This document shows, piece by piece, positions 4,001 to 58,268 of a DNA stretch of 64,000 bases (position 1 is its first letter; each line of letters starts with the position of its first letter). The stretch comes from Candidatus Multivoradales bacterium (lineage in GTDB: Bacteria; Acidobacteriota; Thermoanaerobaculia; Multivoradales; JAHEKO01): the NCBI GenBank assembly GCA_965223155.1, contig CBDCVR010000014.1, positions 928,001 to 992,000 on the forward strand, in the 5' to 3' direction. The notes beneath the pieces were generated by a model. The model was given only the letters and a program-made list of their open reading frames with translations, had not been told where the DNA came from and ran no database searches. The position numbers and the translations under genes were made by a program.

Positions 4001-4627
4001 GCCTCGGCACGCGGGATCCTCGAAGTAGCGGGCGATGCCGTAGTCTGGAACGGTCTCGCCGAGCGCCAAGTTGGGGGCGAGCCGGTCGCGGATCCGATCC
4101 AGGTTGTCCTCGGCCCAGTCGAGCGGAATCAGATCGCCGGTCGAGAGGCCGGAGGTCGTGGCGCCGGTCGGCCACTTGAAGGTGTAGTTGTCGTAGAGAT
4201 CAGAGCTCGAGTCGCTATTGAGCTCGATACCCTCGCACCACCGGCTCTCGGACTCGAGGTCTTCCGAGACGTAGAAGCCACCGGTGGTGGCCGCGATCCG
4301 GCGAACCCGCAGCCCGGTGTGGTTGGGAAACGTGGCAAAGCCGAAGTGGACGCCGCCGGTTCCCTGGAGCACACCGTCGAGCGCCTGCTTGGCGAGAAAG
4401 AGGCGCGACGACGGATCGTCGTCGATGCGGGCTGGCGTGGTCTCCGCCGTCAGAATCCATTCCATCGATCCAGTGGCGTCGAACAGGATGAAGAGATACG
4501 GCGAATCGGCCGCCGAGCGAAACAGATCGCGATCGTCGGCAGCTGCCGGCACCGGCAGAGCCAGGATCGCGCTCAGCGCCACAATCGCGGTGGTCAGAGC
4601 TGGAACATTAGATAGACGACGCTTCAT
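1046..4627 (-). CDS. pilY1: Type IV pilus tip adhesin PilY1/PilC
   Basis: Signal peptide from MKRRLSNV (RBS GAGGAAAG), vWA domain (LFDATGSM, TPL, LMTDG), beta-propeller motifs (DIFHSDP, GSNEGALHAFD, ELFAYVP, VDG), Ca-loop DTDQDSYLD, VAFGTGD. Last large gene of a minor-pilin operon. Confidence 0.9.
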   Translation of the reverse strand: MKRRLSNVPALTTAIVALSAILALPVPAAADDRDLFRSAADSPYLFILFDATGSMEWILTAETTPARIDDDPSSRLFLAKQALDGVLQGTGGVHFGFATFPNHTGLRVRRIAATTGGFYVSEDLESESRWCEGIELNSDSSSDLYDNYTFKWPTGATTSGLSTGDLIPLDWAEDNLDRIRDRLAPNLALGETVPDYGIARYFEDPACRGCSDPPNGSYFRLRDSAARPFLARGATPLGEALIDFKAWHDAWRPLAEAQDPALASGCREVSVVLMTDGFDTCNNTDPVAAAQTLARAGITVYVIGFAVNNPALEDIAREGGSPERDLDGDDVPDGVYSYTATNQQDLIDAFNAIIDDVQERSRTFATAAVPSVVGSAAENVYLTQFSPTADGTSLWPGRLDGYIKPVPLVDVGGQVVADRRKTCLGADPDNCLAWDGAKELLVQAPTRAELDAGTFKLGNGNGLRRVFYGEPVAGRAVETRRIFRTKSPGQVQDELYGPQGFGLTLGDPNFQADGEEIVKYFLQEKQADILNPITRAQETVDYVMADIFHSDPTVIAEPRRFDYFAKDLEGQTEPCGASNDDPSRYPCFVRDQLSRRRVVLVGSNEGALHAFDAGAASRNTDGIVEYSVGSGRELFAYVPRSVMPKIREMAAGSGHQFTVDGPVTVDDVLIDPSFTTNDPLDPADREWRTVAVGGLREGGKAYYALDVTRPDPIDPNQGVPSNPSLLYPGCSGTNATAPGGNPETNCRGRYPEIKWEWTHTWDEDPPGTPGHGAADLAFTWSQANTGRVRIKTGVVNGEVVTEDRYVAIFGGGMDPEFKQNPVGTEVEGNYLFMVDIETGQLLYKRSLDAIDASGTRVPASAPSQPAAVDTDQDSYLDTIYIGNTAGYLYKVDISEPVEIVANVPIRDYSEVDPSTGSPPLTRRVDRIVDAAWDPFPIFRTGGRPIYFPPSVIFVPEQARYAVAFGTGDREDLWSDDLLGGRFYMILDDGFGEVGNVAALPLDESDFESFDAGRNRNVDPNRDLIENPDTTRGFRAGWVLELDLKERVAAKSFGLSGVVFFSTYLPVTTTGSGTAVCSSSGDSRLYSVFADNGGGLSSNGARFRQVSDFVTQPFVESAGAAKGKPTDPSQPPEDQTACSDDELQALRNSLMADMPAECDFAQYSLNVMTLQSENGVQCIVPVPVCVIDRNWKEF

Positions 4628-4673
4628 GGTCTCTTTCCTCGTAGTCTCGACGCGCAGTTCGCCCTCGAGACGA

Positions 4674-5270
4674 TCAATACCGAACCTTGAACTCATCGGG
4701 AACGGGCTGGAAAATCTCCTCGCGAAAGACCGCGTCCCACGGCTGGAGCTCGACCATCAAACTGACCGAGCGGCGGGATACGACCTGAGCGTTGGCCGGC
4801 GGCGGCCCGGCGCCCGTCCAACCGACCCGCTCCGAGGTCGCGGACACCGCGTGATTCACCATCTGCTTGCGTTGCGGGCCCTGATTGATCTCGCAGTACG
4901 CACACGGCCCGGCCTGGATCGCCATGAACGGAGACACGTTGACCCGGTTCGCGAGGTGGTAGTCCTGCTCCCGATTCTCCTGATTCATGCGAAAGGTGAA
5001 CCGCTCCTGGCCGCTCCGCGTGAGCGCCCGAGCGGTGCCGATGGCGACGCCGGAATCGGCCGAATAGAAGGTCTGCTCGATCGCCTGCTCGGCCTTCGAG
5101 ATCTGAAGCTCGGTCTGCGTCACCACCGACAGCGACAGCCCCAGAACCATGATGATGACGAGGGCCATGAGCGAGATGAGATAGGCGCTGCCCTCCTGCC
5201 GCCGCAGGCGGACCCGCCGGGGCGCACCGCGCGCTGGGATCGTCGAATCGGAAGTGAACGTCTTGGTCAT
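4674..5270 (-). CDS. pilX: PilX-like minor pilin
   Basis: RRQEG|SAYLISLMALVIIMVLGLS...QTFYSADSG is the PilX N-terminal pattern lacking Glu5. Located between pilW and pilY1. Confidence 0.8.
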   Translation of the reverse strand: MTKTFTSDSTIPARGAPRRVRLRRQEGSAYLISLMALVIIMVLGLSLSVVTQTELQISKAEQAIEQTFYSADSGVAIGTARALTRSGQERFTFRMNQENREQDYHLANRVNVSPFMAIQAGPCAYCEINQGPQRKQMVNHAVSATSERVGWTGAGPPPANAQVVSRRSVSLMVELQPWDAVFREEIFQPVPDEFKVRY

Positions 5271-5272
5271 GA

Positions 5273-6544
5273 TCAGAGGTTCCTGAAGTCGATGACCGAC
5301 CGAATCTGGCGCCGCCGGAAACGGCGGTCGCGCACGTCGCGGGCTGGGGGTGTCGCGGGTTCGTTCCAGAGGTGGTCCTCGATACGGTCGATCGGCGGCG
5401 CGATGAACTTGACGTCGGTCCGATCGGTTCGCACCAGAGCCGTCAGCCGGAGCAGCTCCAGGCGTCCTCCCGAGTTCCATACCCAACCGCGCGGATCGTT
5501 GGGGTCGTCGAGCACGTCATTTTCGTCGTTGAAGAGCCACTCATCCGAGGCCAGCTGGGAGGCGTCTGTTCCTTCTTCTAACTGACCGTCACGGTCCAGA
5601 TCGATGCCGAGAGCGATCTGCAGATCCAGGACATTGTCGGCAATGTCCTCTTGGGCGTACCGGTTCGAGGGGTGTACGACCTGGGTTCCCGGATAGAAGC
5701 GGGCGCGACTCAGACGCGGCGTTTGCAGGCTGGCTGGGTTGGAGGGATCGATCGACGACTTGCGCACGTAGTACCGATACTCTTCGAGCACGCCGACGTA
5801 GGCCGCCGAGGTCATCTGAGCCGGAAACGCAGCATCCGGCATCAGCTGCAAGTAGTCACTCTGCCGGGTGCCTCCGGAGCGCGTGAAGCTCAGGGTCACG
5901 CCGCGCACTTCACCGCTCGAGGGATCCCGATCGACGTTGCCACCGGTGAGCTCGACCACGGAATAGAGAGACGAGCCCATCGGACTGACCAGGATCAGCG
6001 CTTCGGGATCGGAGGTCGCGTCGTCCACGGCGTCGGCCAACGGACCGATGTCCTGAACCACCCCCATCGCGCTCAAAGCGCCAACCGTGATCTGGTTGTT
6101 GGCAAAGCCGGTCGTGGAGATCTCGCTTTGGTAGACCGACCCGAAGAGGACACCGCGGACGGTCAGAACGTCGGTACCTTCCACGATCTCGGGCGTCCCG
6201 GCACCACCGATGGCGCTCCCCGCCGGGACATTGTTGGTGACCGCTATCGCCGCTCCCTCGGGCAGCAGGTGCCCGCCGAAGCCCGGGCTCGGCGCCAGCG
6301 AGGCAGGCAAGCCGCCGCGCCCGGCCATGCGCGCGTAGCGCTGCGTGTCGTACAGGGCGATTCGCAGATTCTGCTGCATGTCCGAGACGTCGGTCTGGGT
6401 CTTGGCGATCTTGCCGCTGGCCTGAAACAGGGTCAGGACGCCGGCCATCACCAAAACCGTGATGGTCAGGGACACCAGCATCTCGAGTAGGCTGAATCCC
6501 GCCCCTCGGGGAGATCCGATTTCTTGTCTTCGGGCTCGCTTCAT
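5273..6544 (-). CDS. pilW: PilW-like minor pilin
   Basis: Class III signal G|FSLLEMLVSL, then DMQQNLR...ARMAG, and IADNVLDLQI near the C-terminus. Confidence 0.85.
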   Translation of the reverse strand: MKRARRQEIGSPRGAGFSLLEMLVSLTITVLVMAGVLTLFQASGKIAKTQTDVSDMQQNLRIALYDTQRYARMAGRGGLPASLAPSPGFGGHLLPEGAAIAVTNNVPAGSAIGGAGTPEIVEGTDVLTVRGVLFGSVYQSEISTTGFANNQITVGALSAMGVVQDIGPLADAVDDATSDPEALILVSPMGSSLYSVVELTGGNVDRDPSSGEVRGVTLSFTRSGGTRQSDYLQLMPDAAFPAQMTSAAYVGVLEEYRYYVRKSSIDPSNPASLQTPRLSRARFYPGTQVVHPSNRYAQEDIADNVLDLQIALGIDLDRDGQLEEGTDASQLASDEWLFNDENDVLDDPNDPRGWVWNSGGRLELLRLTALVRTDRTDVKFIAPPIDRIEDHLWNEPATPPARDVRDRRFRRRQIRSVIDFRNL

Positions 6545-48959: not shown

Positions 48960-49088
48960 TCTGACACCCTCGAATCGCAAGTCTCGTGCCGCGGGTGGCG
49001 CAGGCCGGACCGGGGGTGGCTGGGGCGGACAAGAGCCACCAAGAACCTACTTCAGGTAGACGGAGGCCTCATAAACTACTGGTTCTCT

Positions 49089-49136
49089 TGGTGGAGCCGA
49101 TCGGGATCGAACCGACGACCTCTTGAATGCCATTCA
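49089..49136 (-). tRNA. 3' half of tRNA-Ala(GGC): truncated copy / att site
   Basis: Minus strand TGAATGGCATTCAAGAGGTCGTCGGTTCGATCCCGATCGGCTCCACCA gives the anticodon loop (GGC), T-arm and CCA. The D-arm and 5' acceptor strand are absent. Confidence 0.88.
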
Positions 49137-49299
49137 GATAGTCAAACTCTGCGGGGCTTGGATCCCCTTTGATTTCGGCCTTATATATCTGGCTCTTCGA
49201 GCGTCGAACCTGCTAGAATCTGCTGCGGTTTGAGCCACTCTGCTTGCTATTTGATTGCTGATAGCCAGGCAGATCGAGTAGGCTGAGCCGTCCAATCGG

Positions 49300-50538
49300 A
49301 TGCGGAAGCGGATCACGAAGCGCTCTGTCGACGCCCTGAAGCCCGGCGCTCGGGACGCCTTTCTCTGGGACACCGACCTCACCGGCTTCGGCTGCAAGGT
49401 CACACCCAAGGGCCGCAAGGTCTACGTACTCCAGTACCGACCACGCGGCCAAGGCTGGAAGACTGCGCCGAAGCGAGTCACCATCGGCAAGCACGGCGAC
49501 CTGACTCCGGAGAAGGCCCGCAAGATCGCCTCCGAGCTCCTCTTCGAGGTGAAGTCGGGCGCCGACCCGGCAGCGGCCTGGAAGCCGGGCGAGGCGCCCA
49601 CCGTGGCGGATCTCGCCGAGCGCTTTATCCACGAGTACCTCCCCAACAAGAAGAGGCCGCCGCGGGACTCGACAGTCTGCTACTACGAGTTGCTCTTTCG
49701 CTGCCACGTCGTGCCCAGCCTCGGAGGCAAACGCGTCGAGGCCGTCGGCCCGGCCGACCTCGAACGGCTACACGCGCAGATGCGCAACACGCCGTACGTC
49801 GCCAACCGGACGCTGTCTCTCCTGCAGAACGCCTTCGACCAGGCGGAGCGTTGGGGGTGGCGTCCGCAAGCATCGAATCCGGCAGTGCACGTCGACAAGT
49901 ACCCCGAGGAGCGCCGTGGTGCCAAGAAGGAAGTCATGCTGACCCCCGAGCAAATGGCCACGCTCCTCGAGGCCATCGATGCTGAAGAGGAAGCGGGTGT
50001 GAACCCGATTGCCTGCGCAGCGATCCGCGTCGCCTTCTGGAGCGGCTGGAGAATCGGCGAAGTCCTGAGCCTGCAATGGGCTCACCTCGACCTCGAGAGT
50101 GGCGCCGCGAAGCTCCTGAACACGAAGACGGCAACCGAAGAACATCGCCACCTTCCCACCGAAGCGGTAGGTCTGCTAAAGGACCTTGCACGATTGGCTG
50201 GTTCGCCCTGGGCCTTCCCCGGTCGCTCGCCAAACAGACACCTGACCACCGTACGGAGGACGTGGATCCGCATTCGTGAGCGAGCCGGCCTAGATGACCT
50301 TGAAGGCCTTGGTGCGCTCCGAATCCACGACTTGCGGCACAACGTCGTTAGCTGGGACGTTTCCCGGGGTGTCCCCCTCGAGATTGCCGGCAAGACTGTC
50401 GGCCACCGCTCGCGGCGTGCTACTGAGGTCTATGCCCACTTTGCGCCAGACGCTCTCAAGCGTGCCGCGGATGCGCGCGCGAAGGCAATGCGCACCGCTC
50501 TCGAGAAGGGCGTGCGAAGCATGGGCGATTCGAACTGA
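49300..50538 (+). CDS. Tyrosine recombinase/integrase with N-terminal arm-binding domain
   Basis: LWD..LTGFG.KV..G.K.Y..QYR arm domain; catalytic R (GWRIGE), K (NTKT), HDLRH, GH, Y (TEVYAH). Confidence 0.95.
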   Translation: MRKRITKRSVDALKPGARDAFLWDTDLTGFGCKVTPKGRKVYVLQYRPRGQGWKTAPKRVTIGKHGDLTPEKARKIASELLFEVKSGADPAAAWKPGEAPTVADLAERFIHEYLPNKKRPPRDSTVCYYELLFRCHVVPSLGGKRVEAVGPADLERLHAQMRNTPYVANRTLSLLQNAFDQAERWGWRPQASNPAVHVDKYPEERRGAKKEVMLTPEQMATLLEAIDAEEEAGVNPIACAAIRVAFWSGWRIGEVLSLQWAHLDLESGAAKLLNTKTATEEHRHLPTEAVGLLKDLARLAGSPWAFPGRSPNRHLTTVRRTWIRIRERAGLDDLEGLGALRIHDLRHNVVSWDVSRGVPLEIAGKTVGHRSRRATEVYAHFAPDALKRAADARAKAMRTALEKGVRSMGDSN

Positions 50539-50752: not shown

Positions 50753-52183
50753 CTACCTTACTCTGAACCCTCTTGCAGACTCCTCGCCCATAATGGTGTC
50801 CCTCCAGAACCGGTTCTTCCTGATCGGGACGGCTCTTTCATTCCTGAAAGCCGGATCCTCAAGATTGCGCCTGATGTGTTCGCTCACAGCTGAGAGCCGC
50901 TCACTATTCGAACGCACAATGAAGTCGCGACACCTACTTCGGACGCGATAGTGCGCAACCAGTCCCGGTTGCTCCCACACAAACTCGACCACGTGCAAAA
51001 TAAAATCTTCCGTGTTTCGAACAGTCAAGTCACTGTCGGCAGCCCAGCCCAAGAAGTCGTCCACCGGCAAGAAGGTGAACTCAGGTTCTACCCTTGCAGA
51101 AGGCCTCGGTGCTGCTCTTTCGTCTACTTCAGCGCGAGTCGTCGCTGCGCGATCTACCTGCTCTCGCGCTTCAGGCTTCGAGACCCTGAACATCACGATT
51201 GCAGTCGTCGCGAGAACCACGACCACCAGAACCGCTGCTAGTCCAAGCGCCCACCGCGCAGGCTTCCGTAGACGCCTCCAAGGCTTCCCGAGCCCCCCCT
51301 CACCGTGTCTATCTCCAGCGACCGCTCCTCCCCAATAGTCCTCAGTCTCCACTGGCTCCCTGATCACGATCGGCTCAGGCCTTCCTTCGTCCTGACTACC
51401 CGGATAAGTCTCTGCCGGCCTGCTGAGCCTAGTCGCAGCTCGCCGGAGAAAGGCACCACAAGCCTCCATCTCCTCAGCCAGTCCTTCGATTCTCTCAACT
51501 ACCGCCGCAAGTTCAGCCTCCACCTGCGATCCACCCACTTCTCCTCTCGCCGCCGCTACGCCACGCTCCCTTCTCTCCTCCTCGACTACCCTGAGCTCTG
51601 GGGCATTTGAGGCTATCCGAACGACTCCGAACCTTTCGAAGACACCTCGTAGAACATCCTCTTTCGTTGCTTCTCCAACAGCCCCACGCTCGACACGCCC
51701 ATCCGGAGTGTTCTCCCCGAGTGCTGGCGCGACCCTGAACCAGTTTGCTGCAACTTCCTCGATCTGCCGGATTGCGCCCGTAATCCTCTCCCCAACCTCC
51801 TCGAACGACCGCGGCAGAAAGTACAGCGCCCCTTCCCGACCTCTGCCCAGTAGGAATCCGCTTTCTACGAATGCATCAATGGCTCTCTCGAAGACCCTCG
51901 CGCGCACGTCGCCTAATCTGATCGGCGAGCGCCCTTCTACCTTGAGCGCAATGCCAAAACATGCGCCCTCTCTGCCAGTCTTCGACTCCCTTACCGTATA
52001 GCGAACAAAGACGACCTCAAGAACTCCCCCTCTTTTCCGAGCCTCAAGTATCCACTCGGGTCGATCATCCGCTCGACCAAGATAGTACTTCTGGTAGTTA
52101 CCCCCCGGATAACTACTGAAACCGTCGACCGGCTTGCCGAAGATCTCTACCCGCGTCCTTGGCCTAACCTCTCCTCGTCCCAT
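50753..52183 (-). CDS. Single-TM protein with N-terminal alpha/beta domain (GAP1-like?) and coiled coil
   Basis: VEIFGKP..F...GREGACFGIAL N-domain, coiled coil, TM WALGLAAVLVVVVLATTAIVMF, C-terminal domain; 7 nt downstream of the GTPase gene. Confidence 0.7.
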   Translation of the reverse strand: MGRGEVRPRTRVEIFGKPVDGFSSYPGGNYQKYYLGRADDRPEWILEARKRGGVLEVVFVRYTVRESKTGREGACFGIALKVEGRSPIRLGDVRARVFERAIDAFVESGFLLGRGREGALYFLPRSFEEVGERITGAIRQIEEVAANWFRVAPALGENTPDGRVERGAVGEATKEDVLRGVFERFGVVRIASNAPELRVVEEERRERGVAAARGEVGGSQVEAELAAVVERIEGLAEEMEACGAFLRRAATRLSRPAETYPGSQDEGRPEPIVIREPVETEDYWGGAVAGDRHGEGGLGKPWRRLRKPARWALGLAAVLVVVVLATTAIVMFRVSKPEAREQVDRAATTRAEVDERAAPRPSARVEPEFTFLPVDDFLGWAADSDLTVRNTEDFILHVVEFVWEQPGLVAHYRVRSRCRDFIVRSNSERLSAVSEHIRRNLEDPAFRNERAVPIRKNRFWRDTIMGEESARGFRVR

Positions 52184-52190
52184 TCTAGAC

Positions 52191-53027
52191 CTAGGAGAAC
52201 CACCCGCCCTTCACACAATCATGAACGGCTTTCCACAGCGTCTTCGGGTAGTGGCCCGCCGACATCGAGTATGTCGCCCTCTCGCCGGTTGCGTCACTAG
52301 CGAACTGCCCGGCCGAGAACGGCACGAAATGCACCTTCCTAAGATTGCTGCTCTCGAGAAAAGTGCGGAGTGGCCCGAACGCCTTATTCCTATACAGAGA
52401 GTCCCTTACTTCCTTATAGATTGGCTTGCCACCTCGCAACCATGAGCCAGTATCGACCTTATTCAGTACGAGAATTACACGATCGCGCTTGGTGTCGGCA
52501 TGAGACCGTAGCGTCGCAACAAGACTGTTTGAGTATCGCGTCAGCAGTTCCTGATCACCGATCATTGCCGGCTCGAAGAACAGCATATAGACCTTCCGGT
52601 AGTCACCTTGGAAGATCTCCCGCAGGTAGTGGGGATGGGCCGCTTTCTCCCCACGACCCCTAGGAAGGAAGTGCTCGCCCGGCGCTTCTAGGAACTGGCA
52701 GTAGCGACTACCCCGGTAGCCGATGTTCACCAGGAGAAAGTCCAGGGCAGCCGTACTATCTGGAGCGAGGATATCTTCGGCTCGCTGCTCGTCGAAGAGC
52801 TCAACTGTACTGGCGTAGTCTGGATCATCACGGAAATGCGGCTCAGCCTCTACACTGAACTCTGATGAGATGTAATGGCACAGACGAAGAAGGGTCACCG
52901 TCTTGCCGATTCTCGTTGGACCATACAGAATCACAACTGGCCCTGTAACGCTCGCGATTCGAACGAGCTCTACATCACGCTCTTCGCGGGGCTCGCTCCG
53001 AAAATCCATGCTTTGCTCGTCCGTCAT
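52191..53027 (-). CDS. Atypical TRAFAC-class GTPase
   Basis: G1 GPTRIGKT, G2 Thr, G3 variant EAPGE, G4 NKVD, G5 FSAG. Confidence 0.8.
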   Translation of the reverse strand: MTDEQSMDFRSEPREERDVELVRIASVTGPVVILYGPTRIGKTVTLLRLCHYISSEFSVEAEPHFRDDPDYASTVELFDEQRAEDILAPDSTAALDFLLVNIGYRGSRYCQFLEAPGEHFLPRGRGEKAAHPHYLREIFQGDYRKVYMLFFEPAMIGDQELLTRYSNSLVATLRSHADTKRDRVILVLNKVDTGSWLRGGKPIYKEVRDSLYRNKAFGPLRTFLESSNLRKVHFVPFSAGQFASDATGERATYSMSAGHYPKTLWKAVHDCVKGGWFS

Positions 53028-53079
53028 GCTCTCGCACCTCTCCTATCAATCATTGTGTCTTGAAACCAAGCAGCTCCGG

Positions 53080-54144
53080 CTACGCGTAACTGTCCTCGCG
53101 CCTCAAGACGCCGAAGTAGAACAAGATAAACGCCGCTACGTCCAGAGTAATGGCCCAAAGCAATGAAAGCCAGAACTTCCAAGTTTCGAACTTTCCTGAT
53201 AGGAAGTCTTTCCAGGAACTAGCAATGTTCTCGAGTCGGATGCTCCCGGGCACGGATGGCAGCTCTTGCAGCGAAAGAGTGGATCGTCTAGCAAGCTCTG
53301 GAAGCTCAAAGCCCTGCTTAACCAAATCTACAGCCTCGTTGTAGGTCGAGAATGCGGTACGCAAGAGCTCCTTCAGATCTAGGATCTCCATGTTGTGAAT
53401 GCCCTGGTCAAGGGCATCACTCACTTGTGTGAGAACGGCTCCATATTTGGGCCGCTCAAGATACGCACTGATTGAGGCTAGGCTGCTGTCGATCTCGCGC
53501 ATTCTTGTATCTGATAGAGAGCGAACTTGGTCGGCCATCGAGTTCGCGTAAACCTCCCAGCCACTCATTCCAGTCCCCGGTCTATCGAGGCGCTGAACCT
53601 CCCGCTGAAGAAGCGCCTCTATTTGAGCGATGACTTTCTCGGTTTCGACGGAGTGGCCGGGGTCACCCGGGTTGGTAATCTCCGCTTTCATCTTCAAGAT
53701 GAGGGCCTCAAGTTCCTCACGGAAGGATTCCCTAGCCGCGTCCCCGGCCACAAGCGCCTTATCGCGAAGGAGATTCAGCGCACTTTGCACAGTAGCAGCC
53801 TCCTCACGGCGCAAGTCGTCAGCAGCCATGACGAAGTAGAAGTTATGCGTGTTGCTCGTGAGGCTCACGAACCACAAGAAGAGAAAGCCGATAAAGCCAA
53901 CGATGGCGAGGAGTGCTCGCCTGGGTTCATAGCCCGGTGAAAAGGCCTGCTTGATGAGCATCAGACATGTTGCCGCTCCAAGTAGGGCGGCCAGACCGAT
54001 GATGTAGCAGAAGGTGCGGGGCAGGAGCGTTGTCCGCCATATCGATTCACCCGTAGCCCAAACGCTGGCCGCGGTGAAGATCGCGTAAAGAACAAACGAA
54101 ATCGCCTGACCACGCGTCCAACCTGCCTCAAGTGGATTGCGCAT
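53080..54144 (-). CDS. Membrane protein with 3 N-terminal TMs, long helical region and 1 C-terminal TM (DUF4407-like topology)
   Basis: Hydrophobic segments at about aa 13-31, 44-63, 77-95 and 323-345; GGAGGAG RBS; first gene of the GTPase operon. Confidence 0.8.
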   Translation of the reverse strand: MRNPLEAGWTRGQAISFVLYAIFTAASVWATGESIWRTTLLPRTFCYIIGLAALLGAATCLMLIKQAFSPGYEPRRALLAIVGFIGFLFLWFVSLTSNTHNFYFVMAADDLRREEAATVQSALNLLRDKALVAGDAARESFREELEALILKMKAEITNPGDPGHSVETEKVIAQIEALLQREVQRLDRPGTGMSGWEVYANSMADQVRSLSDTRMREIDSSLASISAYLERPKYGAVLTQVSDALDQGIHNMEILDLKELLRTAFSTYNEAVDLVKQGFELPELARRSTLSLQELPSVPGSIRLENIASSWKDFLSGKFETWKFWLSLLWAITLDVAAFILFYFGVLRREDSYA

Positions 54145-54310
54145 AACTCCTCCCCCAAGCGCCTCGTAGATCGAAGCGATGAATAGCTCTAAGAGTCGGT
54201 TACCACAAGACTAGCACGCGCTTGAAGAACGGCACAAGCCTCCGAGGCACAGGCCAACTCTCGGTCCGGCGGTGAACGGCTTGTGGCCACGGAGAGGGCA
54301 AGGCTCTGCC

Positions 54311-54628
54311 TGTACGGCTACATACTAGGTACGTAGCCTACACTGGCCCACTGGTCTCGGCTGACGGCTCGGCCTAGTCTCGTTCGGCACGGGTTCCCCA
54401 CGTCGTCGGGCACACGCCCGACCCCGGACTTTTTCCGCCCTAGCCGGCCGGACTATCGGGCCTGCGGTCTCGCGACTGCGAGAACCGCGGCCAAAAGCCC
54501 GGGGTCGGCCGCTCGCCTCCGTTCGCCACGGCGAATTCGCCACCCGGAGGGTGGCCGGAGCCGTCCGACGACGTGGGGGACTAGCCTGTTCTGGGCTGAC
54601 GCCCCACGAAGGGCAGACTGGCTAGGCC
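54311..54628. other. Nested inverted-repeat non-coding region
   Basis: CCCCACGTCGTCGG (54396-54409) pairs with 54565-54578; CCGACCCCGG (54418-54427) with 54499-54508; inner hairpin 54464-54488; GGCCTAG (54371) with CTAGGCC (54622); separate IR at 54311-54342. Confidence 0.7.
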
Positions 54629-54831
54629 TCGATGACCTCGCAACTCTCTTCCCTGCCGCCCACCTCGACCAGCGCTTCGAGGCATTCCCTCGCGAGCGCA
54701 ACCTGCGGTTCACCTATCGGCTCGTACCGGAGCTCCCCATCCTGCTGCACACTTGCCTCGAGCCGCCTCGCTAGCGCGAGGCGCTCGGCGACTGGTAGCT
54801 CCAAGAGCTTCTTGACTTCGTCTTGATCCAT
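54622..54831 (-). CDS. Putative addiction-module antitoxin (TIGR02574-like)
   Basis: MDQDEVKKLLELPVAERLALARRLEASV matches the L.LP..ERL.LA..L..S pattern; GGAAGG RBS. Confidence 0.6.
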   Translation of the reverse strand: MDQDEVKKLLELPVAERLALARRLEASVQQDGELRYEPIGEPQVALARECLEALVEVGGREESCEVIEA

Positions 54832-55069
54832 ACCTTCCAGCGTACGCCTGTCCAGCGACTTTGCAAGCAGCCTTGGGTATACTGATTCAAGACCCCCGTA
54901 CACGGTTCGGAAACCGATCCCTACTGCCTTGCCGGCTCGGTCACCCATAACGACCCGGCAAAGCCACCTGTGAATAGGACGTGGGGGCAGGTAGCTTGCG
55001 CGGCAAGCGTGGCGTTGCGTCCTATTCGCCATAGCTGCGGCGCTAGGAGTAGGGGTCGGCTTCGGAACC

Positions 55070-56335
55070 ATGAGCGAAATCACCTACATCGGCGAGCGAA
55101 CTCCCTGGGGCGAGCCCCGGTTGTTCGGCGTGGAACGAGTCGATCGCCGGCAGCACGTCTACGTGGTCGGAAAGACCGGGCTCGGAAAGACAACGCTCCT
55201 TCGGAACCTTCTTCTCCAGGACATTCACCGAGGGGAAGGCGTCGGACTGATCGACCCCCACGGTGATCTCGCCGACGAGCTCCTCGATCACATTCCTTCG
55301 CACCGAGCCAACGACGTCCTCTACTTCAACCCGGCCGATCTCGAGTTCCCTATCGGGATGAACCTCCTTCGAGCTGCGTCACGCGACGAGGCGCATCTGG
55401 TCGTCTCGACCACCGTTTCCGCGTTCAAGCACCTCTGGGCCGACTCCTGGGGGCCTCGCCTCGAATACATTCTCGCGAATGCGCTAGCCGCGCTCGTCGA
55501 AAAGGGGCGAAGCACGCTGCTCGAGGTTCAACGGATGGCGTCCGATGAGCGTTTTCGAGCTCGCGTAGCCCAGCGCATCAAGGATCCAGTGGTTCGGAAG
55601 TTTTGGCTCGAGGAGTTTACCGAGTACGACAAACGCTTCCGCGCTGAGGCCGTCGCGCCAATCCAGAACAAACTGGGCCGATTCCTGGCTTCCGCACCCC
55701 TTCGGAACATCCTGGGCCAGGTTCGGAACTCGCTCGATCTTCCGTTCTTGATGGACAATCAAAGAATCCTGATCGCAAACCTCTCCAAGGGAACGCTGGG
55801 AGAAGACAAGGCGTCTCTTCTCGGTTCCCTCCTCGTAGCAAGCTTTCACCTGGCAGCAGTGGGCCGCGCGAAAACTCCGGAGGCCGAGCGACAGGACTTC
55901 TACCTCTACATCGACGAGTTTCAGAATTTCACAACGGACGCCTTCGCCACGATCCTCTCCGAAGCTCGGAAGTACCGGCTCAACCTCACGCTGGCGCACC
56001 AGTACCTCGACCAGCTGCCGCTCGAGACACGACAAGCCGTCTTCGGTAACGCCGGGACGTTGGTCAGTTTTGGTGTTGGTTCGGCCGATGCCGAGATCCT
56101 CGCGCCGAACTTTTCACCGATTGGGCCAGGGGCCCTTACCGACCTCGGGAAGTACCAGGCCTACGTGCGTCTCCTTTCTGAGGGCGAAGTGAGTTCGCCG
56201 TTTCGGGCGGAGATGTTCCCTCCTCTTGATACTTACTCAGGTGTGCGGGCCCAAGTCAAACGGCTCTCCCGAGAGCGGTTCGGGCGTCCCAGAGTCGATG
56301 TTGAGTCGCTGGTCTCGGACAGGCTCATTCGTTAG
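55070..56335 (+). CDS. VirD4/TrwB-like (coupling-protein family) ATPase without TM anchor
   Basis: H.YVVGKTGLGKTT, IDPHGDL, WGPRLEYIL, LYIDEFQNF, SEARKYRL..AHQY, GNAGT. Confidence 0.88.
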   Translation: MSEITYIGERTPWGEPRLFGVERVDRRQHVYVVGKTGLGKTTLLRNLLLQDIHRGEGVGLIDPHGDLADELLDHIPSHRANDVLYFNPADLEFPIGMNLLRAASRDEAHLVVSTTVSAFKHLWADSWGPRLEYILANALAALVEKGRSTLLEVQRMASDERFRARVAQRIKDPVVRKFWLEEFTEYDKRFRAEAVAPIQNKLGRFLASAPLRNILGQVRNSLDLPFLMDNQRILIANLSKGTLGEDKASLLGSLLVASFHLAAVGRAKTPEAERQDFYLYIDEFQNFTTDAFATILSEARKYRLNLTLAHQYLDQLPLETRQAVFGNAGTLVSFGVGSADAEILAPNFSPIGPGALTDLGKYQAYVRLLSEGEVSSPFRAEMFPPLDTYSGVRAQVKRLSRERFGRPRVDVESLVSDRLIR

Positions 56336-56522
56336 CAACCTCTTGCCGCCAGCTCTTGGCCAGCCTCGAACTCAGAGTTGCTCTAGTTGCTCTTGACAGC
56401 AGGGACGGATATGCTGCTGGCAGTTTCCACAAGACAACTCTGGTGCTGCGGCGAGCATGGCCGCGAATCGACCGAGCTTCTTGCGAGCGGCGCCGCCGTC
56501 AACTCGAAGGGAGTACGAGTAC

Positions 56523-58268
56523 ATGCCGAACTACAAGTCGATCTGGAACAAGGTGGTCTCGCAAACCGATCTGCCCGACGTCATAACTAGCGTCTCAGAA
56601 GCCAGTATTAACGACCTGCTCGTCGCTCATCGCAAGTACGACAGCGAGCTCTATCGCAGAGTGGAGGAGTTAAAGGACGAGACTACGGGCAAGGTCTTCT
56701 TTTCTCTTGACTTGATCGTTGGTGGTGACCGCAAGGCACACAACCAAGGTAAGGCCTTGCCGCTGAAGATGCTGCTTCCCATGAACTACACCAAACTGGC
56801 GAAGCAAGCGTCCGCCTACGAAATGGTCTACAGCTACAGGTTCCATCAAGGTAAGCCACCTGAGCCGAATGCCCTGCTCGACGCCCCTAACGTCAACTTC
56901 TATTTCGCCTGGCCGTCATCAACAGGAGGAACTCCATGGATGCACCATGTGCCGGGTGTGAACTTCCGGCTTGAGGCTCACCTGCGGCTGATGGACGAGG
57001 AAGTCGAGGAGGGCAAGCCTAGATCGCTTGAAATCGTTCCAGTACGGCTGAGAATCAGCAAGGCCTCTTCGGTACGCCTGAAGAAGTCAATCAAACACGC
57101 GCTACAGAAGACTACGCCGACTGTCACGAGCGACAAAGTGACTGATCTGTTCCTCGCTCTGATCGGGTACGGCGCTTCGACGATCGGCCCAGGCTTAGCC
57201 GAAGCAATCGAGCTTCCGGCAATCAAGCTCGAACGCTGGGAACTCTACCCAAACTTGTTTGCCATTCAAGACCGTACAGTGACCTTAGGTGCAAGTCTAG
57301 ACGCCACCAAGTCTTCCAAGCAGTTGCGCGACAAGACGGGAAGCTTTCTCGAGAACTATTGGGCAGCGGTTGACGCAGACATCCAAAGTGCTGGAGGCAT
57401 CGAGCCTCTCGTCCTGACTAAGAGCTCGCTCAACAAGGTGCGCGCTTCTGCCAAGACGACAGGAGCGCTGGCAACCAAGCTCGCCTTCCAGTCCGATCAG
57501 GCTATCCTGCGAAACTTCAAGACCGCGAACGCCTATCTCAACGAGGCCAAGGCGCAGAACGCTCGCCTACTATCTTCCCGCTTGGGGCCAGCTACCCGCG
57601 CTGTGACGAGCAAAGCGAAGGGTACCGTCCCTGATGGGATGGCAGCAGCAGTCAATGAGTACCTCCTCGACAAGATCGTCGCCCAGTATGGAAACATTTT
57701 GAAAGAGGGCTACACGAACGAAATCAAGATTCTGGACCTCATTCGCGGCCGGGTCGGGTACCGGCTGTCGGTTGGCGTTCCGGATATTGATATCACCCCG
57801 GCCAAAGGGCTGACGGGCAGCGTTCCGGTTGACGCTTGGGCAGGACTACTCTACCGAGTTCGACAGATAAACCGATGCAAGATCGTCTGGAGCGGAGAGA
57901 AGCGCATAGGGCTTGGAATCAGGGGGACGCCGAAGGTCAGCATCAAGACAAAGGTCAGTAGAGGGCTATCTCTACATGCGGATTTTGACCTTTCGAAGCT
58001 GAAACTCTATACGGGGGCTGGCTTCCCGATCGACGACATCGTTGGCGCCCTCTCGCCCATATTTGTCGGTGGAATCGAGGGAGTGCTTGACCTTCTGGCA
58101 TTGTTCCTATCCTTCGTTGTCGTGCCTGCTGATCTAGCGGCCGGAGAAAAGACCAAGCTCTCTTTGAGCGCCTTCAAGACTTCCCAGTACAGGAGAACTG
58201 GCGGTCCCTCTGACTCAAGAAACAACTATCTGATGCTCACGGCTGCAACTGAAGGGAAGAAAGCCTAG
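56523..58268 (+). CDS. Hypothetical cargo protein (possible TULIP/BPI-like fold)
   Basis: Long ORF with AAGGGAG RBS and atypical codon usage; two related segments DVITSVSEASINDLL and DGMAAAVNEYLLDKI. Confidence 0.75.
   Translation: MPNYKSIWNKVVSQTDLPDVITSVSEASINDLLVAHRKYDSELYRRVEELKDETTGKVFFSLDLIVGGDRKAHNQGKALPLKMLLPMNYTKLAKQASAYEMVYSYRFHQGKPPEPNALLDAPNVNFYFAWPSSTGGTPWMHHVPGVNFRLEAHLRLMDEEVEEGKPRSLEIVPVRLRISKASSVRLKKSIKHALQKTTPTVTSDKVTDLFLALIGYGASTIGPGLAEAIELPAIKLERWELYPNLFAIQDRTVTLGASLDATKSSKQLRDKTGSFLENYWAAVDADIQSAGGIEPLVLTKSSLNKVRASAKTTGALATKLAFQSDQAILRNFKTANAYLNEAKAQNARLLSSRLGPATRAVTSKAKGTVPDGMAAAVNEYLLDKIVAQYGNILKEGYTNEIKILDLIRGRVGYRLSVGVPDIDITPAKGLTGSVPVDAWAGLLYRVRQINRCKIVWSGEKRIGLGIRGTPKVSIKTKVSRGLSLHADFDLSKLKLYTGAGFPIDDIVGALSPIFVGGIEGVLDLLALFLSFVVVPADLAAGEKTKLSLSAFKTSQYRRTGGPSDSRNNYLMLTAATEGKKA

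Follow-up and report, generated by a model that had tools for sequence, protein, structure and literature searches.

A three-gene membrane GTPase module in a tRNA-Ala island, possibly a compact relative of the DO-GTPase/GAP1 conflict systems

Genes of the locus

We analysed a stretch of 64,000 nucleotides, hereafter the window, from the genome of a Candidatus Multivoradales bacterium (assembly GCA_965223155.1, contig CBDCVR010000014.1, positions 928,001 to 992,000). It contains three adjacent minus-strand genes encoding a protein with four predicted transmembrane (TM) helices (P1), a GTPase (P2) and a single-pass membrane protein with a predicted longin-type domain (P3). A first-pass annotation, made from the sequence alone, had proposed this trio as a candidate defence or conflict system carried on a genomic island. 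The three co-oriented open reading frames (ORFs) lie exactly where that annotation had placed them and span 3.4 kb, with intergenic gaps of 52 nt between the genes of P1 and P2 and 7 nt between those of P2 and P3. Since strong homologues exist for each of the proteins (E 6e-85 for P2), the ORFs represent real genes and not chance reading frames. The guanine-plus-cytosine content of the trio is 56.4%, compared with 59.5% for the island and 66.5% for the genome, in keeping with the A/T-richer composition noticed at first. A simple scan upstream of gene 1 revealed no sigma-70-like promoter. The features of the trio are as follows.

54147-54156, minus strand: Shine-Dalgarno sequence of gene 1 (GGAGGAG), GGGGGAGGAG, abutting the ATG at 54144
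53080-54144, minus strand: gene 1, P1, 354 aa, predicted four-TM protein, candidate membrane partner or effector (AlphaFold2 model and locus linkage)
52191-53027, minus strand: gene 2, P2, 278 aa, putative cytoplasmic TRAFAC-type GTPase, apparently a distant relative of DO-GTPase2 (motifs and invariant columns)
50753-52183, minus strand: gene 3, P3, 476 aa
51728-52183, minus strand: P3 residues 1-152, predicted cytoplasmic longin-fold domain with invariant Gly16 and Arg71 (predicted local distance difference test, pLDDT, above 90; fold searches)
51422-51601, minus strand: P3 residues 195-254, predicted long helices (195-215 and 218-254 in the AlphaFold2 model) forming a putative coiled-coil stalk, with coiled-coil Pfam noise throughout the family
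51179-51256, minus strand: P3 residues 310-335, predicted single TM helix (AlphaFold2 model; 71 of the 79 downstream genes encode a TM helix at a corresponding position)
50756-51178, minus strand: P3 residues 336-476, putative extracytoplasmic hypervariable C-terminal domain, candidate sensor (BLAST components)

Conservation of the three genes as a module

Relatives were gathered by a pattern scan of one genome per species, which yielded 175 stretches with a P2 relative, and the best 80 loci were kept. A profile of P1 detected a homologue in 79 of the 80, and the one locus without it begins at the edge of a contig. When single sequences served as queries, P1 was located immediately upstream of the GTPase gene, on the same strand, in 75 loci, at a median gap of 23 nt. 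A gene is present downstream of the GTPase in 79 loci; one TM helix is predicted at residue 210-377 of its product in 71 of them, and all 79 fall into one BLAST component with P3. A profile of the P3 N-terminal domain likewise found this family in 79 of the 80 loci. Because P1 and the P3 N-domain each accompany the GTPase in 79 of 80 loci, the three genes constitute a conserved module, and the first-pass suggestion that they belong together is borne out. Most of the 80 loci come from Bacteroidota, and a small number carry the labels Acidobacteriota, Alteromonas, Verrucomicrobiota or Firmicutes. Among the gut metagenome-assembled genomes, some labels may be binning errors, since the sequences are near those of Bacteroidaceae.

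Many relatives carry further genes. A retropepsin-like aspartyl protease (PF13975) is encoded in 58 of the 80 loci, for example at L040:7990-8505, L058:8189-8695, L061:8330-8890 and L072:8189-8770, together with 54 further loci. In 56 loci its gene is downstream of the GTPase gene and co-oriented with it, in most cases just after the gene of the P3 homologue. A D[TS]G motif is present in the five standalone proteases inspected (169-194 aa), along with a lipoprotein-type signal that terminates in Cys; these proteins should therefore be periplasmic lipoproteins. A second longin paralogue, found in 44 of 79 loci, combines the same N-domain with a coiled coil, a TM helix and a different outer domain. 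Neither the protease nor the second paralogue of the relatives has a match in PADLOC. Numerous genomes of gut Bacteroidota contain this larger, five-gene form. The clade nearest to the window (L001-L003, 39-41% identity to P2) has neither the protease nor the second paralogue, as in the window. The genome from which the window comes holds a single copy of the GTPase.

Two arrangements depart from this pattern. In L004 and L005, a gene upstream of the four-TM gene encodes a longer protein (327 and 362 aa) whose C-terminal part is the protease. In L003 (Pyrinomonadaceae), a DDE transposase gene at 4565-5560 on the minus strand separates the four-TM and GTPase genes. The four-TM ORF has been reduced to 276 aa here, and the module of this locus has probably lost its activity.

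P2 is a GTPase with a glutamate-bearing G3 motif

The sequence of P2 contains GPTRIGKT (G1), FLEAPGEH (G3), NKVD (G4) and FSAG (G5), with a glutamate replacing the usual aspartate of G3, as the initial reading of EAPGE in place of DxxG had indicated. That reading had counted all five G motifs; G1, G3, G4 and G5 can be read in the sequence, while for G2 Thr92 is a candidate. Gly36, Pro37, Gly41, Lys42, Glu114, Pro116, Gly117, Glu118, Lys190 and Asp192 are invariant in 23 homologues, and the wider family retains the P-loop in 189, ExxGE in 173 and [NST]KxD in 167 of 194 members. P2 itself gave nothing significant against Pfam, the AAA_16 model reaching 27.1 bits, which is under its cut-off. When the family profile was run with HMMER against 1.84 billion representative proteins, it retrieved 495 at E <= 0.001, 414 at 1e-10 and 263 at 1e-30. 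Since only 495 of so many proteins are retrieved, the P2 family is small and well separated from canonical DO-GTPases, only bordering the Pfam DO-GTPase2 family. A sequence search of the PDB with the GTPase profile returned merely P-loop and Ras G4-region matches (E 0.001-0.5).

Four of the 150 best family matches have long N-terminal extensions (P0125, P0174, P0203 and P0214). The extension of P0174 is a SEFIR domain (PDB 5y8e, E 2.5e-20), that of P0203 a TIR domain (E 7e-4) and that of P0125 a class III nucleotide cyclase (E 6e-7). The extension of P0214 returned nothing from the PDB, and we take its motifs to be metallophosphoesterase-like. Fusion of a P1-like protein to the GTPase was considered as an explanation of these long members and rejected, because their extensions are SEFIR, TIR, cyclase and probably phosphoesterase domains. 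TIR and calcineurin-type phosphoesterase domains are listed as effectors of GAP1-N1 systems, and cyclic nucleotide monophosphate cyclases appear among the effector domains of other systems, in Kaur et al. 2020 (PMC7159879).

P3 combines a predicted longin domain with a hypervariable outer domain

In the earlier description of P3, drawn from its sequence, an alpha/beta N-domain bearing GREGACFG led into a coiled coil, then one TM helix and finally a C-terminal domain of variable sequence. The AlphaFold2 model agrees with this architecture, places GREGACFG at residues 69-76 within a domain of pLDDT above 90, and represents the C-terminal domain, built on the family alignment, at moderate confidence. 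A basic stretch precedes the TM helix; the N-domain should therefore be cytoplasmic and the C-terminal part outside. The variability of the latter is pronounced. Among 72 family members, the N-domains form one BLAST component and the C-terminal parts form 44, and of 59 pairs with at least 50% identity in the N-domain, the C-terminal part could be aligned in 33 and not in 26. The outer domains include LysM in 2 of 65 members, and MORN-like domains were also found.

No Pfam family fitted P3 when 65 full-length and 78 N-domain members were scanned. In Foldseek, the N-domain matched TagF best (E 3.7e-3), followed by Sec22b and Lst4. Alignment of the Foldseek candidates with VIA-align gave the highest score to an Asgard Roadblock-Longin protein (8yqg_A; Z 9.5, root-mean-square deviation 3.6 over 129 residues), ahead of Lst4 (8.3), the FLCN complex (8.2), Vamp7 (8.1) and TagF (7.2-7.8). 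A search of 48,161 chains, made independently of Foldseek, placed longin-type structures in its first 33 rows, with a best Z of 9.3; these rows are uniform and extend over the entire domain. On the predicted model, the P3 N-domain thus has the longin fold, an alpha-beta-alpha sandwich of about 120-150 residues, an assignment made at the level of the fold and at moderate Z scores.

Longin domains are established platforms for small GTPases (PMC3747258). In FLCN, NPRL2 and SMCR8, an arginine finger stands beside a Gly-Pro motif before strand 2 (PMC12290439). The only invariant residues of the P3 family are Gly16 and Arg71; Gly16-Lys-Pro18 precedes strand 2, with the family consensus HGVPxG. At the level of sequence, P3 and the longins that act as GTPase-activating proteins (GAPs) share Gly-x-Pro before strand 2 and an invariant Arg. 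Arg71 may be regarded as a candidate arginine finger. The same fold, at Z 7-9.5, is seen between P3 residues 1-152 and the longin regulators FLCN-FNIP, GATOR1 (NPRL2-NPRL3), C9orf72-SMCR8, Mon1-Ccz1, the SNARE longins and the Asgard Roadblock-Longin proteins, and the paired longin paralogues of the relatives recall heterodimeric longins serving as GAPs or as guanine nucleotide exchange factors (GEFs). P3 differs from these regulators in being bacterial, in being tethered by its own TM helix, in its low identity to them (6-13%) and in its partner, which is a DO-type and not a Rag, Arf or Rab GTPase. TagF, a post-translational regulator of type VI secretion and the best Foldseek match, is bacterial and of the same fold class; it differs in being soluble and lacking a GTPase partner, and no type VI genes lie near the trio.

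A profile search with full-length P3 was swamped by coiled-coil words, with 2 matches, and was set aside. The N-domain profile matched 73 longer proteins, all of them unnamed or "hypothetical" and none with PF20012 or PF20013. Some of these 73 matches carry PF27605, PF26052 or PF24161, and P0058, P0068, P0071, P0074, P0076 and P0081 are among the P3 homologues with precomputed PF27605 and PF26052 assignments. A recent Pfam family may already cover part of P3.

P1 is a predicted four-TM protein with a large helical insert

The AlphaFold2 model of P1 (pLDDT 93.5, predicted template modelling score 0.83) contains TM helices at residues 11-39, 43-67, 76-~100 and 321-346; some 200 residues between the third and the fourth are folded into a helical bundle. 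The hydrophobic windows of the sequence coincide with the modelled TM positions, so the model and the sequence both fit the earlier description of a four-TM protein with a long helical loop. Conserved polar residues lie in or at the ends of the TM helices (Ser27, Trp29, Thr31 and Ser34; Trp91, Ser94, Asn98 and His100; Asp335). Within the family, Ser27, Trp91, Asn98 and His100 are invariant and Asp335 is 98% conserved. Over 61 members, the count of Lys and Arg residues is 2.2 in the loop between helices 2 and 3 and 2.0 at the C-terminus, compared with 0.43 in the loop between helices 1 and 2. This charge distribution suggests that both termini are inside and that the helical bundle is periplasmic.

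A relationship to DUF4407 (PF14362), raised by the first-pass annotation, finds slight contact within the family, 2 of 61 members matching this model (best E 2.2e-5), and does not extend to P1 of the window, which is unmatched. DUF4407 was also the nearest named cluster to P1 in a language-model Atlas (score 0.76), and its members resemble P1 in being TM proteins with a helical insert. In the literature searched, DUF4407 is named in three papers, and in none of them in the title or abstract.

Predicted contact between P2 and P3

Structure prediction of P2 together with P3 residues 1-170 gave scores of 0.42, 0.36 and 0.28 (median 0.36), and the best of three controls reached 0.01. The runs share at least 53% of their contacts, and the partner has a pLDDT of at least 76. 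When the method was calibrated, 58 of 80 solved complexes passed the mark, as did 2 of 110 mismatched pairs; at scores of 0.60 or below, passes came from 7 of the 80 solved complexes and from both of the passing mismatches, and in this range a pass is more often wrong than right unless the pairing is likely beforehand. The complex prediction, which had been proposed with the trio, thus separates the pair from its controls and at the same time earns only a weak grade, lending weak support to binding of the P3 N-domain by P2.

Relationship to DO-GTPase/GAP1 systems

DO-GTPases are defined by a conserved Walker B glutamate (PMC7159879). P2 carries the core motifs of this group: the P-loop GxxxxGK[ST] as GPTRIGKT, [NT]KxD as NKVD, with Lys42, Lys190 and Asp192 invariant, and the Walker B glutamate (xxGE) in EAPGEH, where Glu118 is invariant. 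Canonical DO-GTPases taken from GASH-DO2-DO1-GAP1-N1 and GAP1-N2 loci show DAPGEW or DPSGEV at the corresponding place, together with [NST]KxD. Among 16 P2 homologues, 6 match PF19993 at E <= 0.01, one of them exceeding the gathering score (29.9 against 27 bits). The comparison with DO-GTPases suggested at the outset thus points to a family that borders DO-GTPase2; P2 of the window is itself unmatched by the Pfam model.

Comparable traces connect the N-domain of P3 with GAP1-N domains. In hhalign, the P3 N-domain was compared with nine GAP1-N2 domains (P 8e-4, probability 24%, 38 columns), and the alignment pairs the invariant GRxG(S)YFG of the P3 family with GRWGNFFAH of GAP1-N2. For P3 residues 1-160, five of the six Atlas rows shown carry GAP1-N1 or GAP1-N2, with scores of 0.77-0.86 that serve as leads only. 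On these two lines and the position downstream of the GTPase, three weak lines taken together, the P3 N-domain is likely, though not proven, to be a divergent GAP1-N-like domain. The GAP1-N1/N2 connection suggested at the outset survives in this weak likeness and is absent at the level of Pfam. Widening the GAP1-N2 alignment was also tried and found the domain in 0 of 401 genomes of the phylum sample.

The trio and the DO-GTPase/GAP1 systems (PF19975, PF19993, PF20012 and PF20013) have in common a TRAFAC GTPase with the Walker B glutamate (xxGE) and NKxD, and a partner with a constant N-domain encoded just downstream. Frequent TM segments, extracytoplasmic variable domains, a mobile and patchy spread, relatives fused to TIR-type and nucleotide-related domains, and a purely computational status are shared as well. 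The trio differs in having ExxGE for DxxGE (173 of 194 members), in its single GTPase, which lacks a zinc ribbon, and in a separate, obligate four-TM protein with a helical bundle; most relatives differ further in the periplasmic retropepsin-type lipoprotein and the second longin paralogue. The branch to which the trio belongs may already lie within the data set of Kaur et al. (PMC7159879), in the text of which "longin" does not occur as a word.

As first stated, GAP1-type conflict systems have been predicted computationally and are largely untested. No experimental test of a GTPase-centred conflict system was found in the literature searched, where GAP1-N1/N2 are named only in the original prediction, and no paper describing the trio was found. 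Against PADLOC-DB v2.0.0, the matches were no better than chance (GajA at 0.02; mad8 at 0.0019, covering the P-loop region) and P3 matched nothing, and no family of NCBIfam or PHROGs matched the trio; the system is thus outside the PADLOC collection, an outcome that the first-pass annotation had named as favouring novelty. The membrane-anchored anti-phage systems Kiwa and Zorya, in which a multi-TM protein and a cytoplasmic partner appear to sense envelope events, are alike in outline to the trio, which matches them neither in sequence nor in PADLOC. Neither is known to contain a GTPase or a longin domain.

Distribution and genomic context of the module

The module is sparsely distributed. None of 40 relatives from the same genus, family and order has a P2 homologue. 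In the order of Parabacteroides distasonis, where 251 genomes were covered and part of the first-look candidates was scored, only the centre genome matched, against 0 of 250 relatives. The neighbourhoods of 14 relative loci were inspected. L002, L008, L058 and L072 lie in elements with an integrase or serine recombinase, a VapE-like primase, RadC and SSB. L001 is flanked by CHAT, TPR and NB-ARC genes, and L004 by genes for a type I restriction enzyme, DUF559 and NOV_C proteins.

A proposed mechanism and its alternatives

The trio may represent a compact, membrane-borne form of the DO-GTPase/GAP1 conflict systems, its longin-type regulator linking the outer sensor with the GTPase switch, and in this reading we place about as much trust as doubt. 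What the two have in common is the GTPase hallmark, the order of the genes, membrane association and, probably, a GAP1-N domain. Several observations were counted in favour of a defence function, namely the disruption of the L003 copy by an insertion sequence, the sparse spread, the hypervariable outer domain, the TIR, SEFIR and cyclase fusions, the neighbourhoods of L001, L002, L004, L008, L058 and L072, and the island context with its restriction-modification and helicase genes; from these we infer that defence could be the role of the trio.

From the gene linkage, motifs, fold, variability and mobile context, we infer how the proteins might act together; the binding of P2 to P3, the direction of regulation, the role of P1 and the defence output would be as follows. 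P3, with its N-terminus inside, would probably form a coiled-coil dimer, in relatives together with the paralogue, and its variable outer domain would sense a signal in the envelope. This signal could be a phage, another invader or envelope damage, and it would be relayed through the TM helix and the stalk to the longin domain. The longin domain would dock on P2 and set its GTP/GDP state, with Arg71 as the candidate arginine finger. Active P2 would then engage P1, in which the conserved polar residues of the TM helices hint at a gated path or at perturbation of the membrane. P1 could be a membrane effector gated by the GTPase, or alternatively a second sensor or a scaffold. The infected cell would probably be arrested or die, or incoming DNA would be blocked, for example through membrane depolarisation or abortive infection. 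In the five-gene form, the periplasmic protease may cleave an outer domain during activation.

A number of results weigh against this proposal. On the side of kinship, P2 has no match to PF19993 or PF19975 at E <= 0.1, and its own genome has none at E <= 0.001. No window protein reaches a Pfam DO-GTPase or GAP1 model, and GAP1 was absent from the 65 + 78 scans of the P3 family. GAP1-M, GAP1-C, GASH and FNIII components gave no Pfam match in the trio; a canonical locus scanned in the same manner as a control gave GASH at E 7e-92. The hhalign probability is 24% over 38 columns and the Atlas scores are below 0.9. The best fold scores, Z 9.3-9.5, exceed the background of 7-8 given for the tool by only a moderate margin, and function does not follow from a common fold; the P2-P3 complex prediction, at a median of 0.36, is graded weak. 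On the side of function, the trio contains no recognised effector domain, nor any nuclease, as had been noted at first. No fold could be named for P1, for which Foldseek gave a best E of 0.039 and the wide VIA search a best Z of 10.2 (talin), the remaining matches being generic helical bundles. The enrichment in defence islands that the first-pass annotation had proposed as a check is not evident in the 14 inspected loci, of which only 2-3 (L004, L001 and perhaps L013) have recognisable defence-type neighbours and about 5 (L010, L013, L014, L040 and L061) lie among housekeeping genes. No copy was present in collections of plasmids (72,556 records) or phages. Metagenome contigs scanned for the context of the fused GTPases offered little: one locus matched the cyclase part only, and the other had a fragmentary match to the GTPase profile on the opposite strand.

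The trio could alternatively be a non-immune envelope-signalling switch, in which a GTPase/longin pair, like MglA/MglB or Rag/FLCN, relays a periplasmic cue (cell wall, nutrients or contact) to a membrane protein and thereby controls envelope remodelling or a surface process. Longin/Roadblock partners of bacterial GTPases are known in polarity control, and the MglA/MglB switch shares with the trio a small bacterial GTPase and a Roadblock/longin-like regulator. MglB differs in being small and soluble, and the pair is chromosomal, broadly conserved in its lineages and without a four-TM partner or a hypervariable domain. The housekeeping surroundings of the five loci named above, the lipoprotein aspartyl protease of 58 of the 80 loci as a periplasmic extra, the LysM or MORN-like outer domains and the lack of a recognised effector domain would all suit such a switch. 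The sparseness of the module (0 of 40 and 0 of 250 relatives), its location here in an integrative island, the hypervariability of the outer domain even between close N-domains (26 of 59 pairs unalignable) and the TIR, SEFIR and cyclase fusions in the GTPase family argue against it, and we consider this explanation unlikely.

The kinship with DO-GTPase/GAP1 systems could also be spurious, the linked trio being an independent new GTPase system whose P3 merely shares a common longin fold. The family profile, with its 495 clusters in 1.84 billion, does not reach canonical DO-GTPases; the P2 family aligned with three TM-bearing DO-GTPases in hhalign at only E 0.015, and the GAP1 models of Pfam are absent from the member scans. 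P1 also shows no similarity to the TM region at the N-terminus of the TM-bearing DO-GTPases (hhalign E 0.3), so that a split DO-GTPase fusion as the source of the trio gains no support. Against a chance resemblance stand the PF19993 matches of 6 of the 16 homologues, the identical [DE]xPGE[HW]F and NKxD motifs, the equal gene order and the two independent weak signals, from hhalign and the Atlas, that tie the P3 N-domain to GAP1-N. We regard an independent system of this kind as decidedly improbable.

A function in the service of the mobile element, either the exclusion of related elements at entry or at the surface, or addiction through post-segregational killing that keeps the island stable, would fit the integrase-adjacent position, the two TraD/VirD4-like ATPases, Replic_Relax protein, primase and RadC of the island, the copies beside integrases, serine recombinases, VapE-like primases, RadC and SSB (L002, L058, L072 and L008) and the membrane location that exclusion proteins share, yet it appears quite improbable given that conjugation genes were not seen near most of the 14 inspected loci, that no copy was found on the 72,556 plasmid records and that an elaborate switch-plus-sensor with a hypervariable outer domain is atypical of known exclusion or toxin-antitoxin pairs.

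Returning to the DO-GTPase/GAP1-like conflict system, the trio is about the smallest self-contained version seen here, being free of an accessory effector, and it offers a practical handle on such systems. A broader generalisation is possible, though doubtful: the GAP1-N domains of DO-GTPase systems, including that of P3, would be GAP-type longins with a Gly-x-Pro motif and an arginine finger, bacteria would have immune switches built from a membrane-tethered longin GAP and a GTPase, and a hypervariable outer receptor would control a GTPase that gates a four-TM, membrane-breaching effector, a design and possibly an ancestry common to the FLCN, GATOR1 and C9orf72 modules of eukaryotes and Asgard archaea. 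If the longin reading is true, the "GTPase-associated protein" could be understood in concrete biochemical terms, as a platform for GAP or GEF activity that carries a candidate arginine finger, and a bacterial immune-type switch would be linked to the longin/GTPase logic of eukaryotic membrane traffic and nutrient sensing. Given that many gut Bacteroidota carry the five-gene form, what it does may matter for the dynamics of phages or mobile elements in the gut community.

The tRNA-Ala island surrounding the trio

The trio lies in an integrative island bounded by 71-bp direct repeats that are 96% identical (C14:977066-977136 and C14:1004835-1004905, on the same contig). The intact tRNA-Ala(GGC) gene (C14:1004858-1004933, complementary strand) overlaps the second repeat beyond the end of the window. 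The island is 27.8 kb long. Because the second repeat and the intact tRNA-Ala lie 27.8 kb away, the window holds only the left 15 kb of the island and ends within it. The position of the trio as integrase-adjacent cargo, as first proposed, is confirmed: the tyrosine integrase is the next gene, and the island sits in tRNA-Ala and carries restriction-modification genes. The two features at its left end are listed below.

49066-49136, no strand assigned: left attachment repeat, a copy of the tRNA-Ala 3' half with flanking bases (71-bp direct repeat)
49300-50538, plus strand: tyrosine integrase (Pfam Phage_integrase 5.3e-19, Arm-DNA-bind_3 2.6e-14)

The integrase stands at the end of the island remote from the intact tRNA-Ala. 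ARAGORN found no tRNA within the window. An Rfam tmRNA match at 49089-49180 (15.7 bits against a cut-off of 47 bits) was rejected as the tRNA-Ala 3' half in the attachment repeat, and the genuine tmRNA lies on another contig.

On the other side of the trio, the region of about 475 nt 5' of gene 1 (54145-54620) is devoid of a convincing gene. It is followed by a 153-aa minus-strand ORF (54622-55083) that overlaps the start of the opposite-strand ATPase gene and has a Pfam row at chance level only. Other island genes encode a TraD/VirD4-like ATPase, a 603-aa protein, a Replic_Relax protein and RadC. The 603-aa ORF (56457-58268, plus strand), located between the coupling-protein-like and Replic_Relax genes, has no match in Pfam, NCBIfam, PHROGs or PADLOC. 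The island further encodes a DnaG-type primase, an SNF2 helicase, a NOV_C protein, Vsr, a GIY-YIG protein and a C5 cytosine methylase, and its second TraD-like ATPase is fused to a helix-turn-helix domain. Both TraD/VirD4-like ATPases (55070-56335, plus strand, and L106:10120-13542, plus strand) match the PADLOC mad8 model (E 6e-18 and 5e-22), and the C5 methylase matches the DruM/MTase_II models. Instead of or besides transfer genes, the ATPases, together with the C5 methylase, Vsr, GIY-YIG, SNF2 and NOV_C proteins, could represent a methylation-associated defence set.

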